Shown here in pieces: positions 4,848-61,617 of a stretch of DNA of 64,000 bases. Position numbers and translations under genes: made by a program. The notes under the pieces were generated by a model. The model did no database searches and was not told the DNA's origin. It saw only the letters and a program-made list of their open reading frames with translations. Source of the stretch: Lentimicrobiaceae bacterium (GTDB taxonomy: Bacteria; Bacteroidota; Bacteroidia; Bacteroidales; UBA4417); the NCBI GenBank assembly GCA_028697555.1, contig JAQVEX010000002.1, forward strand, positions 11,677-75,676, written 5' to 3'. The first letter of the stretch is position 1, and every line of letters starts with the position of its first letter.

Positions 4848-4953
4848 GCCTTTAGCCTTTAGCCTTTGGCTATTAGCCATTAGCCAAACTCAGCCAACAG
4901 CCAACAGCCAATAGCCAATAGCCAATAGCCAATAGCTAATAGCTAATAGCAAT
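4848..4953. repeat. Heptamer-array element E1: 15 in-phase degenerate 7-mers (GCCTTTA x2 ... CAGCCAA x3, TAGCCAA x4, TAGCTAA x2)
   Basis: Read directly from the sequence. The period of 7 is maintained from 4848 to 4953. Lies between the convergent trkH and carbonic anhydrase genes. Confidence 0.9.
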
Positions 4954-4991
4954 GACAATTTATAAAAGGTTAAAACCAAAAGTCGAAAAGG

Positions 4992-5660
4992 TTAGTCTAC
5001 TTTAACAAACTTCTTCAGTTCTTTATCGTAGTTATAAATTCTACCCTCTTCAATTTGGTAGTACCAACCATATACGTTTAGCTCGCCTGCTTTAACTTTT
5101 TTTCGGATATACGGGTAATCCATCAAGTGTTTGATTTGCAGTACTACGTTAAGTTTTTCGGTGTAGGCTTCACGTTCTTCCAATTTCAACTTATTTTTGG
5201 CAATTTTTTTCTCTACACGTTCTTTCACGGGTCTCGCAAGTTCGAGCCAATTTCTGGTTTGGGGTAGTTTTTTCAACTCTTTATCTTTGTACAAAGCTGC
5301 ACAACCGCCGCAATTAGAGTGCCCACAAACAACTATATTCTTTACTTCTAGCTGGTTTACTGCATATTCTATTACTGCAGATGTAGCAACATAAGTAACG
5401 GATTTTCTTTTGTAAAGAGGAACGAAGTTGCCAATGTTACGAACTACGAATAGCTCGCCGGCTAAGCTTTTGGTTAGCATGTGCGGAACCACACGCGAAT
5501 CGGAGCAGCCAATAAATAATGTGTGAGGAGTTTGTTTTTCTTTTAATTCGTCGAAGAGGAGTTGATTGGGAACAAATTCCCGAGTGTTAAAATCGCGGAT
5601 ACCTTCCAATAAACGGTCTTTGTTGGTATCGGGTGTTGGGTTTGATGATGACGTTTCCAT
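4992..5660 (-). CDS. Beta-class carbonic anhydrase
   Basis: 222 aa with the zinc-ligand motifs CSDSR and HSNCGG. Confidence 0.85.
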   Translation of the reverse strand: METSSSNPTPDTNKDRLLEGIRDFNTREFVPNQLLFDELKEKQTPHTLFIGCSDSRVVPHMLTKSLAGELFVVRNIGNFVPLYKRKSVTYVATSAVIEYAVNQLEVKNIVVCGHSNCGGCAALYKDKELKKLPQTRNWLELARPVKERVEKKIAKNKLKLEEREAYTEKLNVVLQIKHLMDYPYIRKKVKAGELNVYGWYYQIEEGRIYNYDKELKKFVKVD

Positions 5661-5776
5661 AAGCTTTATATTTTTTGGGTTGTTTTTTTGAGTTTGCGAA
5701 TTTTTACATTTCGTTTTCCTATTGCCTGCTATGTGTAATAACGTCGCTCAATTTGTTTGGTTTTTTACTTTGAGAT

Positions 5777-5813
5777 AAAAAAAGTTGTCTGTATTACTTA
5801 GACAACTTTTTTT
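5777..5813 (-). terminator. Rho-independent terminator downstream of tsf
   Basis: AAAGTTGTC (5781-5789) pairs with GACAACTTT (5801-5809). Flanked by an A7 run and a T7 run, so it could act in both directions. Confidence 0.7.
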
Positions 5814-5838
5814 AATCAAAGTAAGTCATAAATAAGAA

Positions 5839-6675
5839 TTACGAACCTAACTGAAAGCGTTTCAGGTCGGTAACGGTAAAGTTCTTATCAATTCTTTGCA
5901 AGTAATCTTTAACGGAAACCTTAGCTTCGTTAATAAATTCTTGTTCCAATAAAGTGTTTTCTTTAAAGAATCTGTTAAGTTTACCCATAGCTATTTTTTC
6001 AAGCATTTCTTCGGGTTTACCTTCTGCTCTGGCTTGTTCTTTACCAATTTCAATTTCTCTGTCTATAGCACTTTGAGGGATACTGTCTTTATCAACTGCT
6101 AGCGGGTTCATTGCTGCAACCTGCATTGAAATGTCATTTCCAATTTGTTCAATATCATTTACATCTTTTTTGTTGAAACCAACTATTGCAGATAATCTGT
6201 TATCGAAGTGATTGTAGGCAGCGGTATAAGGGGCAGTAATGTGTTCGTAGTGAGCCAACTGCATTTTTTCGCCTGTTTTACCTATAAGATGTGTAACACC
6301 TTCTTCTACAGTAAATCCGTCAATTTTTATTTGAAGTAGTTCGTCCAACGATTTAGGTTGATGTTCAATTGTTGCATCGCTGATTTTGTTTGCAAAGTCG
6401 ATAAAATCTTGATTTTTTGCAACAAAATCGGTTTCACAGTTAAGCATAATAACAGATGCAAATCCGTTGTCGGCTGTAGTTCTGGCTATAACAATACCTT
6501 GATTTGCGTCTCTGTCGGCGCGGTTTACTGCTACTTTCTGACCTTTTTTTCGTAGTATATCGATAGCTGCTTCAATATCTCCGTTAGATTCAACCAATGC
6601 TTTTTTGCAGTCCATCATGCCTGCTCCTGTTATTTTTCTGAGTTCATTAACTTGAGCTGCTGTAATATTTGCCAT
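5839..6675 (-). CDS. tsf: Translation elongation factor Ts
   Basis: 278 aa with the N-terminal UBA-like motif (ITAAQVNELRKITGAGMMDCKKAL). Downstream of rpsB, as in the usual operon. Confidence 0.95.
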   Translation of the reverse strand: MANITAAQVNELRKITGAGMMDCKKALVESNGDIEAAIDILRKKGQKVAVNRADRDANQGIVIARTTADNGFASVIMLNCETDFVAKNQDFIDFANKISDATIEHQPKSLDELLQIKIDGFTVEEGVTHLIGKTGEKMQLAHYEHITAPYTAAYNHFDNRLSAIVGFNKKDVNDIEQIGNDISMQVAAMNPLAVDKDSIPQSAIDREIEIGKEQARAEGKPEEMLEKIAMGKLNRFFKENTLLEQEFINEAKVSVKDYLQRIDKNFTVTDLKRFQLGS

Positions 6676-59681: not shown

Positions 59682-59693
59682 TACATTGTATTT

Positions 59694-60509
59694 ATGATAA
59701 ATATGGAAAATAACCGCGACAAAAAGAATAAGATAATAGCCTTATCGAGTTCGGTAGGGGTACACGTTCTTATTGTTTTAATTCTGTTATTTTCGGCTTT
59801 TAAAACTCCATTGCCTTTGCCTGGCGAAGAAGGTGTTGAGGTTAATTTAGGAACATCAGACCAAGGTTTTGGTTTGGTTCAGCCTGCACATTTGCAAGCG
59901 CAGTCGGCACAGGAAGCTTACCAACAAAGCTCCGGCAGTGATAATGAATACGTTACCACCGATGAAGAAACTGTTGCCATTGAACAACCTAAGCCTAAGG
60001 ATAAAGATAAGGCACAACCCGAAACACCTAAAAAAGAAGTTACAAAAGCTGTTGAGCCTGAGCCGCAACCTGTTGTTAATCCTAATGCTTTGTACAAAGG
60101 AAAGCAAAGCACTCAAGGCAGTAGCGAAGGTGGCAGTCAGGGTATTGCAGGCGGCGTGGGCGACCAAGGCAGCATATACGGCACTCCCGGAAGTGATAAT
60201 TATGTAGGAACAGGAGGTAGAGGTAGCGGCAGCGGAATTTCGTACGAATTGGGCGGGCGAGGAGCTACATCGCTTCCAAAACCGGTTTACAATTCGAGAG
60301 AACAAGGCAAAATTGTTGTTGCAATAAAAGTCAACAAAAACGGAGTTGTTACACACGCAGCCGCCGGAGCAAGAGGTACAACCATTTCGGAAATTACATT
60401 ACGCAGAAATGCCGAGGAGGCAGCAAAACGAACAAAATTTGCTCCCGACCCTAACGCACCCGAAGAACAAAGAGGTACAATTACTTATGTGTTTGTCAAA
60501 ACCAATTAA
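59694..60509 (+). CDS. tonB: TonB-family energy transducer
   Basis: 271 aa with an N-terminal TM anchor, a Pro/Lys/Glu-rich spacer, a Gly-rich region and a C-terminal TonB_C-like domain. Follows exbBD. Confidence 0.7.
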   Translation: MINMENNRDKKNKIIALSSSVGVHVLIVLILLFSAFKTPLPLPGEEGVEVNLGTSDQGFGLVQPAHLQAQSAQEAYQQSSGSDNEYVTTDEETVAIEQPKPKDKDKAQPETPKKEVTKAVEPEPQPVVNPNALYKGKQSTQGSSEGGSQGIAGGVGDQGSIYGTPGSDNYVGTGGRGSGSGISYELGGRGATSLPKPVYNSREQGKIVVAIKVNKNGVVTHAAAGARGTTISEITLRRNAEEAAKRTKFAPDPNAPEEQRGTITYVFVKTN

Positions 60510-60518
60510 AAATATGCT

Positions 60519-61448
60519 ATGCGAAGTCTGTTAATCATAGTTTTATCGGCTTTTGTCATTAGTTCTTGTGCCAAATTAAATCCCGATTACCCGTTTGTAC
60601 CTAACGGTTATTTTTCCTATACTTCCGAACAAATTGCTTTACGACCTGTTTCGTCTGTTATTTACGAAAACAACCATTCGATATATTTTGCATCAACCAA
60701 TGGCAGCGTTATATATTACGATGGCATTGTATGGAAAAATATAGCCGATGAGTCGGACAGGAGCGTTAATGAAATACTTAAAACACGCGATAATATTCTG
60801 TGGAAAGCCACAAATAAAGAATTAAGCTATTATCAAAACAACTTTTGGACTAACGTCTTACAAAATGCCGATGTTATTGATATTGAAGCAGAAGGCATTT
60901 CAAACTTATGGATTCTTACTTCCGATACGGTTAATCAGTTGTTGCATTACAATAATCAACGTATTGACACAATAAAACAAGCCAATAATTTAAAGCGTAT
61001 TGCAGGAATAGCAACAGACAGCGACCATAAATTGTGGATAGCTTCGGCTAACAATGGATTGTTTTATACGATAGATGGCAACGAAATTATTAAATTTCAA
61101 AATCCGTACTTGCCACGAATAGAATTTACTTCTATTGCAACCGACGAAAATACAGTTTGGCTTGGCGACAACGAAGGCGTTATTTACAAAGTATGCAACA
61201 ACGAAGTATACATTATACGCACAGGTTTAAACCAGCCGATTACTAAACTATATGCAACCGATGATAACAGCTTGTGGGCAATTGTTTCGCAAACAGGTTT
61301 AATCAGATATAAAGGTTCGGAAATACAACTTCTGAGCAAACAAGATTACAATTTCCCTTCAAATAATATTATTACCATTTCGCAAACCGATGCTTCTTCG
61401 CTATTAATAACCTTTGATAACGGCGAAATTTTCAACTTAGCATTTTGA
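60519..61448 (+). CDS. Lipoprotein with beta-propeller (two-component-regulator-propeller-like) repeats
   Basis: 309 aa with a lipobox (VISSC). Recurrent motifs: LWIASANNGLFY, VWLGDNEGVIY, LWAIVSQTGLIRY. Confidence 0.5.
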   Translation: MRSLLIIVLSAFVISSCAKLNPDYPFVPNGYFSYTSEQIALRPVSSVIYENNHSIYFASTNGSVIYYDGIVWKNIADESDRSVNEILKTRDNILWKATNKELSYYQNNFWTNVLQNADVIDIEAEGISNLWILTSDTVNQLLHYNNQRIDTIKQANNLKRIAGIATDSDHKLWIASANNGLFYTIDGNEIIKFQNPYLPRIEFTSIATDENTVWLGDNEGVIYKVCNNEVYIIRTGLNQPITKLYATDDNSLWAIVSQTGLIRYKGSEIQLLSKQDYNFPSNNIITISQTDASSLLITFDNGEIFNLAF

Positions 61449-61469
61449 TATAAAAACTTTTTGTAAAAG

Positions 61470-61617
61470 AAGTTGCGTGGTGTCCCGAAGTTTCGGGATG
61501 GTGCGTGTTGCGGGGTCTATGTGCAATTAACAATGAACAATTAACAATGAGCAATTATTAATTGATAATTGATAATTGATAATTGCTCCACACCCACCAC
61601 CCATCACCAACCACTAT
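61470..61617. repeat. Heptamer/palindrome mosaic element E6
   Basis: AAGTTGCGTGGTG, then the palindrome TCCCGAAGTTTCGGGA at 61483-61498. This is followed by 17 consecutive in-phase 7-mers at 61499-61617 that drift from G-rich to AT-rich to C-rich. Confidence 0.92.

Follow-up and report, generated by a model that had tools for sequence, protein, structure and literature searches.

We analysed a 64,000-nt stretch of DNA from a Lentimicrobiaceae bacterium (assembly GCA_028697555.1, contig JAQVEX010000002.1, forward-strand positions 11,677 to 75,676; hereafter the window). The window carries housekeeping and type IX secretion genes and, between them, six elements, E1 to E6, built from arrays of 7-nt words (heptamers). 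An initial annotation, made from the sequence alone, had described six intergenic arrays that stay in phase while the word changes, and this observation is confirmed at all six sites. All six are intergenic, with the first array of E3 overlapping the ispD stop codon. Tandem periodicity was scored across the window as the identity at lags 2–15 along a sliding 35-nt segment, with a minimum of 0.74. Lag 7 yielded eight regions, each located inside E1–E6, while the other lags yielded none except at the multiple 14, making period 7 the sole tandem periodicity of the window. The same heptamer arrays were recovered by TRF. Written in rows of seven, consecutive units share at least 4 of 7 identities across runs of 4–10 units while the word drifts, and E5 and E6 keep one frame over their full length, including the AT-rich words and the hairpin that lie between the G-rich and the C-rich ends. 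Arrays of the 5–17 units first reported are present, but a count of 17 requires that the two arms of E1 be taken as one run. The sites have 97 canonical 10-mers in common (60 with the hairpin positions masked); in 1000 trials, non-overlapping control segments shared 2.5 on average and 18 at most. This bears out a vocabulary common to the sites on both strands. Of the 14 intergenic regions that measure at least 150 bp, 6 hold an element, and together the elements make up 19% of the intergenic bases in the window; their GC content is 40–53%, versus 27% for intergenic DNA. No transposase genes were found in the window, as first annotated.

Architecture of the elements

The elements and their parts are as follows (window coordinates).

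E1, 4848–4953: two heptamer arms forming a fold-back, in the convergent trkH/carbonic anhydrase spacer
E1, 4848–4887: left arm, GCCTTTA-type words
E1, 4890–4950: right arm, AGCCAAC/AGCCAAT/AGCTAAT
E2, 8701–8906: between the ompH terminator and the rplM promoter; fold z = -6.5
E2, 8709–8724: hairpin 1, exact palindrome
E2, 8727–8769: G/T-rich arrays, GTTAGCC/GTTGGCT/GTGATGG
E2, 8774–8789: variant hairpin 2, TCCCGAGTATTCGGGA
E2, 8790–8854: centre
E2, 8855–8870: hairpin 3, opposite orientation
E2, 8871–8906: A/C-rich arm and terminus, ending ...CACGCAACACTAATCA
E3, 30402–30555: two G-rich arrays, not a fold-back
E3, 30402–30432: first array, (GTGAGTG)4, overlapping the ispD stop codon
E3, 30433–30515: central hairpin module, with a 24-nt block shared with E4
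E3, 30517–30546: second array, GTTGCGG/GTTACGA/GTTACGG
E4, 44281–44483: filling the convergent ispF/porV spacer; fold z = -4.7
E4, left terminus: TAGTGTT
E4, 44285–44337: G-rich array
E4, 44338–44353: palindrome
E4, 44354–44441: hairpin-rich centre
E4, 44442–44476: C-rich array, CACCCAC/CACTCAT
E4, right terminus: CAACACTAAT
E5 with its frame, 53058–53325: 268-bp segment in the divergent C25-peptidase–porP/sprF spacer
E5, 53107–53274: arrays, to the extent first annotated
E5, 53109–53137: G-rich array, GTTGCGT/GTTACGG
E5, 53138–53176: AT-rich words
E5, 53179–53194: degenerate palindrome
E5, 53207–53272: C-rich and AGCTAAC arrays
E6, 61470–61617: G-rich array, AT-rich inverted arrays and C-rich array; fold z = -4.0 on both strands
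E6, 61472–61510: G-rich array, interrupted by the palindrome at 61483–61498
E6, 61524–61585: AT-rich inverted arrays, CAATTAA/TTGATAA
E6, 61588–61617: C-rich array and terminus, CACCCAC...CCACTATA

E1, E2, E4, E5, and E6 each form one long imperfect fold-back, the arms of which are the heptamer arrays. When each element was folded as a single strand and compared with dinucleotide shuffles, the whole-element fold-backs gave z = -2.8 to -9.4, including E1, which lacks a palindrome (z = -5.4 on the + strand and -9.4 on the - strand). The left-arm words GTTGCGT, GGTGCGT, GTTACGG, GTGATGG, and GTTGGCT approximate the reverse complements of the right-arm words CACCCAC, CATCACC, AGCCAAC, and ACGCAAC, and the AT-rich words CAATTAA and TTGATAA of E5 and E6 are inverted copies of one another. 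Analysis of GC skew confirmed the polarity proposed for four sites: in E2, E4, E5, and E6 the left third has a skew of +0.4 to +0.5 and the right third of -0.4 to -0.7. E1 is polar only in that it passes from G/T to A/C. E3 pairs in its centre only, and since both of its arms are G-rich (skews of +0.70 and +0.46), it is not a fold-back.

Three termini have the form TAGTGTTG...CAACACTA. The recurrence of termini, words, and palindrome supports one family of mosaic intergenic repeats, while the description of the sites as six copies of a defined element does not stand: what is shared consists of heptamer words, termini of about 8 nt, a 16-nt palindrome, and one 24-nt module only. This module, TATCGAARTGCCGAAAATGGAGA, is the single block beyond words, termini, and palindrome that two elements have in common, the E3 copy being 96% identical to positions 44373–44396 in E4. 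One metagenome scan for it gave a single chance match, in a coding region of a 48%-GC contig, and the module was rejected as a dispersed repeat and regarded as private to this lineage. Comparison of the outer frames revealed that the sequences around the arrays are locus-specific; those of E5, E1, and E6 had no non-orthologous matches and were rejected as parts of a mobile unit. The E6 array becomes perfect again once the palindrome and TGGTG, together 21 nt, are taken out. In E3, the last codons and the TGA stop of ispD (open reading frame 29747–30412) lie inside the first GTGAGTG units (30402–30412), and the array thus appears to have remodelled the 3' end of the gene.

Position relative to genes and transcription signals

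Bacteroidota promoters follow the consensus TTTG-N17–23-TAnnTTTG. A scan with this consensus predicted the rplM promoter at 8653–8622, outside E2, and, outside E5, the promoter of the C25 gene at 52995–52965 (-) and the porP -7 box at 53372 (+). The ompH terminator is intact (hairpin plus T-run at about 8963–8995), and E2 is located downstream of it. E2 and E5 are probably untranscribed spacers, because E2 is positioned between a terminator and a promoter and E5 between divergent promoters. E1 and E4 lie at convergent gene ends, while E3 and E6 begin at, or about 20 nt past, a stop codon. No T-tract terminators were called in the scanned region that holds E1 and E2.

Orthologous sites in related genomes

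Searches with PorV and EF-Ts assign the window to an uncultured Bacteroidales lineage, EF-Ts having a 100% match in a Lentimicrobiaceae MAG. We compared the sites E1, E2, E4, and E5 with their orthologues in related metagenome-assembled genomes (MAGs) of conserved synteny at 99%, 94–95%, 71–72%, and 67% protein identity; L-numbers denote fetched loci, and the direction of insertions and deletions was polarised by parsimony only. The comparison revealed both presence/absence and array-length polymorphism. At E4, three MAGs with the same PorV protein (P0001, 94% identical to that of the window) keep the termini and have a rebuilt interior. The L143 allele reads (GTTACGT)n-(CAATTAT)n-CCCCGCAGGTGCGGGG-(TTGTTAA)n-(CACCCAT)n; L145 has different unit numbers, with one GTTACGT of L143 appearing as GGTGCGT; and L144 has the palindrome TCCCGAAGTTTCGGGA inside the G-rich array. 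The anchor-to-anchor lengths in these 94% relatives are 181, 188, and 216 nt, any two of which are a multiple of 7 apart. In the 67% relatives, the E4 position holds a plain terminator hairpin. The E4 sequence of the window is identical in two independent assemblies from the Sequence Read Archive (SRA).

The 268-bp segment of E5 is present in the window and, with different interiors, in L144 and L147, and is absent from L143, L145, L146, and L148. It is bracketed by a 14–16-nt direct repeat, which is single in the empty alleles. E1 is absent in the 95% clade, where the spacer is 45 bp; the 99% clade has it, with 7 nt more in the left arm and 42 nt less in the right arm than in the window. E2 has at least four alleles among the relatives: hairpin 1 is missing from the 99% strains, a difference of 23 nt; in the 95% strains it is decayed, hairpin 2 is absent, and there are 9–10 GTGATGR units versus 3+1; and one subclade has one additional GTTGGCC unit. 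The 72% relative has no element at the E2 site, and the 67–72% relatives have no arrays at the compared sites. Array-length differences between alleles are always multiples of 7, E1 and E5 are present or absent among strains with 94–99% identical flanking proteins, and hairpins are gained or lost inside arrays between strains, in register in E6 and L144.

As read from the aligned alleles, the elements change fast between strains: entire 7-nt units are gained or lost, one word gives way to another from the common vocabulary, and whole elements as well as the 16-nt palindrome come and go. From the orthologous comparison, we therefore conclude that the elements are real, dispensable, and restricted to a shallow clade at these loci, and that they evolve in 7-nt steps with word replacement and module gain and loss.

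The 16-nt palindrome

The window contains 12 matches to the palindrome TCCCGAAGTTTCGGGA with at most three mismatches, versus 0.28 expected. Four copies are exact and start at 8709, 44338, 61483, and, in opposite orientation, 8855; a variant starts at 8774, and the copy at 53179 is degenerate. The five CCCG-N4–8-CGGG hairpins of the window all sit in E2, E4, and E6. The palindrome had been assigned to four sites; it is present in E2 (three hairpins), E4, and E6, while the E5 copy has three mismatches and E3 has none.

A cross-phylum scan with one genome per species found the 16-mer at no fewer than 120 loci, overwhelmingly in several orders of Bacteroidota, for which our own chance estimate is about 10. 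The hosts listed are Flavobacterium, Fluviicola, Crocinitomicaceae, Chitinophagaceae, Pedobacter, Saprospiraceae, Lentimicrobiaceae, and Bacteroidales. Among 131 copies, the flank preference is weak and symmetric (yNr-16mer-yNr): 75% have a purine at -1 and 76% a pyrimidine at +1. About one quarter of the copies are located in long open frames. A strong heptamer array adjoins 4% of the copies versus 0.8% of controls, and a tight phylum-wide association of palindrome and array was therefore rejected; the tendency of palindrome orientation to follow the G/T-rich strand across the phylum was rejected as weak (p = 0.06). All 20 matches in viral contigs were array-free and in unrelated contexts, so phage carriage of the palindrome was likewise rejected.

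In several Flavobacterium genomes the 16-mer occurs in copies of the dispersed repeat Flavo-1 (RF01705), the curated consensus of which lacks it. It sits in the apical loop in L073 and L074, in the 5' internal region in L133, on the 3' side in L070, and at the 3' edge in L067 and L099, four different positions in all.

L067, 2523–2600: Flavo-1 copy with the 16-mer
L070, 6867–6956: Flavo-1 copy with the 16-mer
L073, 5542–5629: Flavo-1 copy with the 16-mer
L074, 1125–1245: Flavo-1 copy with the 16-mer
L099, 2252–2327: Flavo-1 copy with the 16-mer
L133, 7824–7916: Flavo-1 copy with the 16-mer

In three other genomes the 16-mer substitutes 3–13 nt in partial or pseudo-tRNA copies beside intact tRNA-Trp, tRNA-Asn, and tRNA-Phe genes. 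ARAGORN and Rfam call only the intact genes at these loci, not the pseudo-tRNA copies.

L084, 4270–4781: four tandem 87-nt tRNA-Trp-like repeats
L033, 6300–7450: three tRNA-Asn-like copies
L110, about 230, and L119, about 370: tRNA-Phe 5' fragment

Because of its varied positions in Flavo-1 and its replacement of bases in pseudo-tRNA copies, the 16-mer behaves as an insertable module, that is, a module separate from the arrays, inserted or substituted in unrelated contexts throughout Bacteroidota. Two side observations concern this module. Flavo-1 behaves as a dispersed repeat into which other sequence inserts, a point of possible relevance to its curated alignment. In several Flavobacterium genomes (L025, L091, L098, L102, L135) there are nested forms, TCCCGA-TCCCGAAACTTCGGGA-CGGGA, in which each half of the stem occurs twice in a symmetric arrangement, the pattern that copying of one arm from the other would give.

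The sequences flanking the in-array hairpins (TGGTG in E6, GTTG in L144) were considered as target-site duplications and rejected: the other three cases do not fit, and such duplications are no evidence because any insertion into a periodic array ends up repeat-flanked. We also considered the GUCCY-hairpin motif (Weinberg 2010), a short hairpin flanked by GUC and CY with the form GUC-GCUCCAAGCU-UGA-CUUGGAGC-CUA. Identity with this motif was rejected, as the published alignment has a different stem and flanks and the window hairpin is followed by GA(C) rather than CY. One GUCCY-hairpin instance on an AT-rich marine scaffold (JCVI_SCAF_1096627189024/739-1173; PMC2864571) is preceded by AGUAAUU AGUGAAG AGUGAUU AGUAAUU, and these heptamer-like units hint that other short hairpins also sit in heptamer arrays. 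No earlier mention of the 16-mer sequence was found in the searched literature.

Arrays and polarity beyond the clade

The elements are not confined to the window, occurring in the related MAGs and in a distant Lentimicrobiaceae MAG (L051), whose element shares the termini, contains G-rich GAGTTAC words, and, like E2, has AGAACT after the palindrome. In a wider sample of 880 kb from about 110 other genomes, mostly Bacteroidota and collected via the palindrome, we found 23 period-7 arrays versus 0–5 for the periods 5–12, mosaic and degenerate as in the window. A Bacteroidales MAG (L046) has arrays on either side of two TCCCG...CGGGA hairpins. In adjacent array pairs the order was G-rich to C-rich in 7 of 7 and never the reverse. 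Across 11 independent contigs the G-rich arm is always 5' and the polarity is never reversed, and this G-first order spans Bacteroidota, Omnitrophota, Neomarinimicrobiota, and phage-like contigs.

In viral contigs, triplets of window words occur at 10 and 47 loci, and composition-matched control words at 36, 17, and 79 loci. GTTRCGK was accordingly rejected as a privileged word, three control words being equally common in viral DNA. Inverted pairs in viral contigs are formed by GTTRCGK only, as six units in four contigs, all G-first, versus 0 of 132 control loci. An example of such a unit is A10-TTGAAAG(GTTACGG)3GTTT, an AT-rich spacer of about 100 nt, and AAAC(CCGTAAC)3CTTTCAA-T8. The phage-like contigs carry (GGTTRCG)3, a mostly AT-rich spacer of 80–170 nt, and the exact inverted complement, sometimes several times per contig.

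L195, 1–200 and 755–940: phage-like units
L213, 170–420 and about 8300–8540: phage-like units
L215, 1200–1390: phage-like unit
L234, 225–365: phage-like unit

Comparison with known repeat systems

The elements share the general features of heptanucleotide repeats described as long simple sequence repeats (LSSR) or short tandemly repeated repetitive (STRR) sequences: a tandem 7-nt unit, an intergenic location, and a copy number that varies between close relatives. Like the STRRs of cyanobacteria, they combine several word families per genome at many intergenic, strain-variable loci with no known function, and the proposed likeness to STRRs therefore fits at the level of kind. They differ from the STRRs of heterocystous cyanobacteria in phylum and in words; the STRR1–3 words CCCCAGT, TTGGTCA, and CAACAGT gave no tandem dimers in the window, nor did TAACTGA, GGGAATC, and GGGGAYT. 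To our knowledge, STRRs have been described neither as fold-backs of fixed G-first polarity nor with an embedded GC-rich palindrome.

The initial suggestion that no described Bacteroidota family fits was too strong, since heterogeneous intergenic heptamer arrays are documented (PMC4692102, PMC4679880). Heptamers are the most over-represented long simple sequence repeats (SSRs), intergenic and heterogeneous (Mrazek 2007, via PMC4692102 and PMC4679880), and polymerase slippage has been proposed for heptamer SSRs whose length and sequence vary between close species (PMC4692102, PMC4679880). The GGGAATC repeats of Xanthomonas and GGGGAYT repeats of Nostoc (Rehm 2015, PMC4692102) are also heterogeneous and intergenic, with some inverted pairs and marked variation of length and sequence between close relatives. 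They use other words, whereas here unrelated word families share one register, GC-rich hairpins are embedded, and whole spacers are quasi-palindromes. 'Larger assemblages of heptamer repeats' have been noted in Gramella forsetii, Aequorivita sublithincola, and Elizabethkingia anophelis (MacGregor 2015, PMC4679880). These are mixed intergenic heptamers in the same phylum, absent from the orthologous spacer of the closest relative and associated with contig breaks, but they are mentioned in passing around TAACTGA, with no fold-back, polarity, palindrome, or allele series (PMC4679880).

With repetitive extragenic palindromes and their assemblies (REP/BIME/REPIN), the elements have in common short GC-rich extragenic palindromes in mosaics, all types of spacer, and density in housekeeping DNA. 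The proposed REP/BIME likeness fails on the GTAG tag: none of the six hairpins has a GT[AG]G or CGTC foot, their 5' flanks being ttag, cttg, tctg, gtta, tgca, and ggtg. There are no fixed linker motifs, the bulk is heptamer array, and no open reading frame with a Y motif plus HuH, expected of a RAYT/Y1 transposase, was found in the window or in 1.48 Mb of fetched loci. REP/BIME/REPIN palindromes are moreover species-specific, while the 16-mer is phylum-wide. The elements also differ from MITEs (miniature transposable elements with inverted repeats): termini resembling terminal inverted repeats are present at some ends only (E2 right, E4 both), a bracketing direct repeat at E5 alone, and the copies vary in length and content. 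In an Rfam scan of the window at the gathering threshold, two tRNAs were the only hits and Flavo-1 was absent; E-value scans of E2 and E4 gave at best 17 bits, so no Rfam family matches the elements. Flavo-1, also a dispersed Bacteroidota repeat, harbours the 16-mer in several Flavobacterium genomes; it is related to the palindrome as its host and is no relative of the heptamer elements. The small dispersed repeats (SDRs) of Nostoc, which Elhai and colleagues are said to have described in 2008 as 21–27-nt repeats inserted in varied contexts including other repeats, with no associated gene, would be the closest behavioural analogue of the 16–22-nt palindrome, although phylum and sequences differ. 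Heptamer arrays are thus known as a class; we came across no prior account of their folding back over a whole spacer, of alleles that differ in 7-nt quanta, of the G-first rule, or of the 16-mer inserting throughout a phylum. The initial annotation had not recognised that whole elements fold back, that they are hypervariable between strains, or that the palindrome is an insertable module of the phylum.

Other repeats in the window

The 3' end (27327–27384) of a small Fe-S assembly gene (27062–27385) is duplicated at 28468–28525 with 86% identity, in a spacer 1.1 kb downstream; this spacer (28294–28684) also contains a C8 run and the 10-nt repeats AAATTAACAA (28417–28439). Two paralogous peptidase-C25 (PorU-like) genes lie in tandem at 45734–52959 beside porV and share a 90-nt stretch of 73% identity (47750, 51565), an arrangement kept in all fetched relatives. 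At 61806–64000, two adjacent type IX secretion system (T9SS)-sorted proteins with RHS-type repeats contain 87-nt (29-aa) tandem units (62100–62790, 63550–64000), and the 5' regions of their genes (61783–62054 and 63222–63493) are 72% identical.

Origin of the elements

We favour, with a probability of about 0.58, the reading that the six sites are dispensable, lineage-specific STRR/LSSR-like heptamer clusters shaped by 7-nt slippage and templated exchange, with an insertable palindrome, and probably neutral or selfish. The elements would then probably act at the level of DNA, not as genes or regulators. Arrays would grow by replication slippage in 7-nt steps, and arms as well as arrays at distant loci would swap words by template switching or gene conversion. 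This exchange would keep the vocabulary and the 7-nt register common and could carry the palindrome between arrays. The polarity might stem from the way in which these large palindromes arise, through fold-back priming of a G/T-rich nascent strand, or from the orientation that is tolerated; C-first elements may be counter-selected for exposing C-rich, G-poor RNA to Rho, or the G-first order may relate to G-quadruplex (G4) or R-loop formation on the non-template strand. The elements would settle in harmless places (gene ends, gaps between terminators and promoters, gaps between divergent promoters), and any transcriptional effect would be incidental. Several points weigh against this reading. 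Slippage alone leaves aside the recurrence of words and of the TAGTGTTG...CAACACTA termini at unrelated loci and in L051, it does not account for the never-reversed polarity, and the conservation of an exact 16-mer across orders of the phylum goes beyond it. Shared termini, polarity, and 16-mer identity each hint at a sequence-specific protein or mobilising enzyme. Template switching and gene conversion are deduced from end states only, and an RNA role may apply to E1, E3, E4, and E6.

These hints lead to the possible, though clearly less probable, alternative that the palindrome, and perhaps, by analogy with REPINs, the entire fold-backs, are non-autonomous mobile DNA copied in trans by a single-copy RAYT-type HuH Y1 transposase, with the heptamer arrays as landing pads or scars of repeated insertion and excision. 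The varied placement of the 16-mer in Flavo-1, pseudo-tRNA copies, and arrays, its polymorphic presence between strains, its symmetric yNr flanks, and its enrichment in Bacteroidota are consistent with such copying, as are the termini that reach the distant Lentimicrobiaceae MAG and the direct repeat that brackets E5. The survey of RAYT genes points the same way by analogy: the Bacteroidetes-specific subclass 2.6 is flanked by GTAG-less 'atypical secondary structures' with copies elsewhere in the genome, and subclasses 1.2 and 2.4 are common to Cyanobacteria and Bacteroidetes, the phyla best known for heptamer arrays (Quentin 2018, PMC6006769). In a still more tentative version, TCCCGAAGTTTCGGGA with its yNr flanks would be a 16–22-nt mobile palindrome of all Bacteroidota, written by an unrecognised single-strand DNA enzyme that also makes the fold-backs. 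Its targets may be hairpin apices, Flavo-1, tRNA-gene copies, coding linkers, and heptamer arrays, its enzyme may be RAYT subclass 2.6 or subclasses 1.2 and 2.4, and the fold-backs would arise by 7-nt staggered processing or fold-back priming rather than by plain slippage. Against mobility, neither a GTAG nor a CGTC tag is present on the hairpins, the examined supplements of the RAYT survey (PMC6006769) do not contain the 16-mer, and no Y1 gene was found in the window or the 1.48 Mb of fetched loci, which is weak evidence, RAYTs being single-copy. Furthermore, the elements are not near-identical and have locus-specific outer frames. The palindrome replaces a few bases instead of inserting cleanly, and no consistent target duplication accompanies it, a feature that cannot be scored inside arrays. 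In other genomes just 4% of its copies adjoin arrays, and arrays exist without it, as in E1 and E3 and in viral contigs, where a hairpin lies within 150 nt in 3 of 84 arrays.

It is unlikely that the elements are functional at the level of RNA or transcription, as orientation-independent terminators, insulators, or 3'-end stabilisers of the kind proposed for REP/BIME, in which the G-first order would let any entering polymerase make an RNA that snaps into a long hairpin. The predicted RNA hairpins are strong on both strands, and the orientation-independent polarity would be in keeping with a device that works in both directions. E1 and E4 take up convergent spacers, the latter at the position where the 67% relatives have an ordinary terminator hairpin, and the starts of E3 and E6 at or near stop codons also agree with such a role. 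However, E2 and E5 are probably untranscribed, and close strains with the same genes lack E1 and E5, which indicates that these are dispensable. No T-tracts follow the stems, the interiors are replaced wholesale and not conserved, and Flavo-1, the other host of the palindrome, has no consistent relation to F. psychrophilum transcripts (PMC9723704).

We consider it improbable that the arrays are structural or protein-binding DNA, either as phased sites for one protein per 7 nt (of the cold-shock/S1-type OB-fold) or as G-quadruplex tracts that organise the nucleoid or pause replication. E4 contains the canonical G4 motif GGGTTTCGGGGTGCGGGTTACGGG, and each arm of the viral units carries four G-runs, those of the two arms being on opposite strands. 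Work on Xanthomonas and Nostoc has dealt with the formation of G4 by G-rich heptamer arrays (PMC4692102), and CspB is cited as binding heptamer repeats with one protein per unit (PMC4679880). But G-runs are missing from many arrays (E1, the AT-rich E5/E6 arrays, AGCTAAC), so G-quadruplexes were rejected as a general explanation; words change freely between strains, no candidate protein was identified, and control words are as common in viral DNA (36, 17, and 79 versus 47 loci). An artefact of metagenome assembly is very improbable: short-read Logan contigs of the same and related strains do end within the E1 or E2 arrays (L153–L157, L164–L166, L170–L177), but E4 is identical in the two SRA assemblies, homologous elements are also seen in JGI contigs and in several MAGs from NCBI, a 1.72-Mb contig among them, and the palindrome and heptamer arrays are found in complete genomes of cultured Flavobacterium strains.

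Implications

Heptamer arrays are among the commonest bacterial tandem repeats and are still unexplained. With several states per locus, the alleles of this lineage form a natural series in which step size, word exchange, arm symmetry, and polarity become testable, and the fixed G-first polarity is a constraint that any model of origin must explain. The 16-mer provides a simple marker of an apparently phylum-wide insertion process, for which Flavo-1 and the tRNA-gene copies serve as built-in before/after controls; the interest would be greater if palindrome and polarity truly mark a specific enzymatic process. For Lentimicrobiaceae, the elements break short-read assemblies of MAGs and are thus a systematic cause of fragmentation in the lineage, they can lengthen or shorten gene ends, as at the ispD stop codon, and they may find use as high-resolution strain markers in anaerobic digesters.

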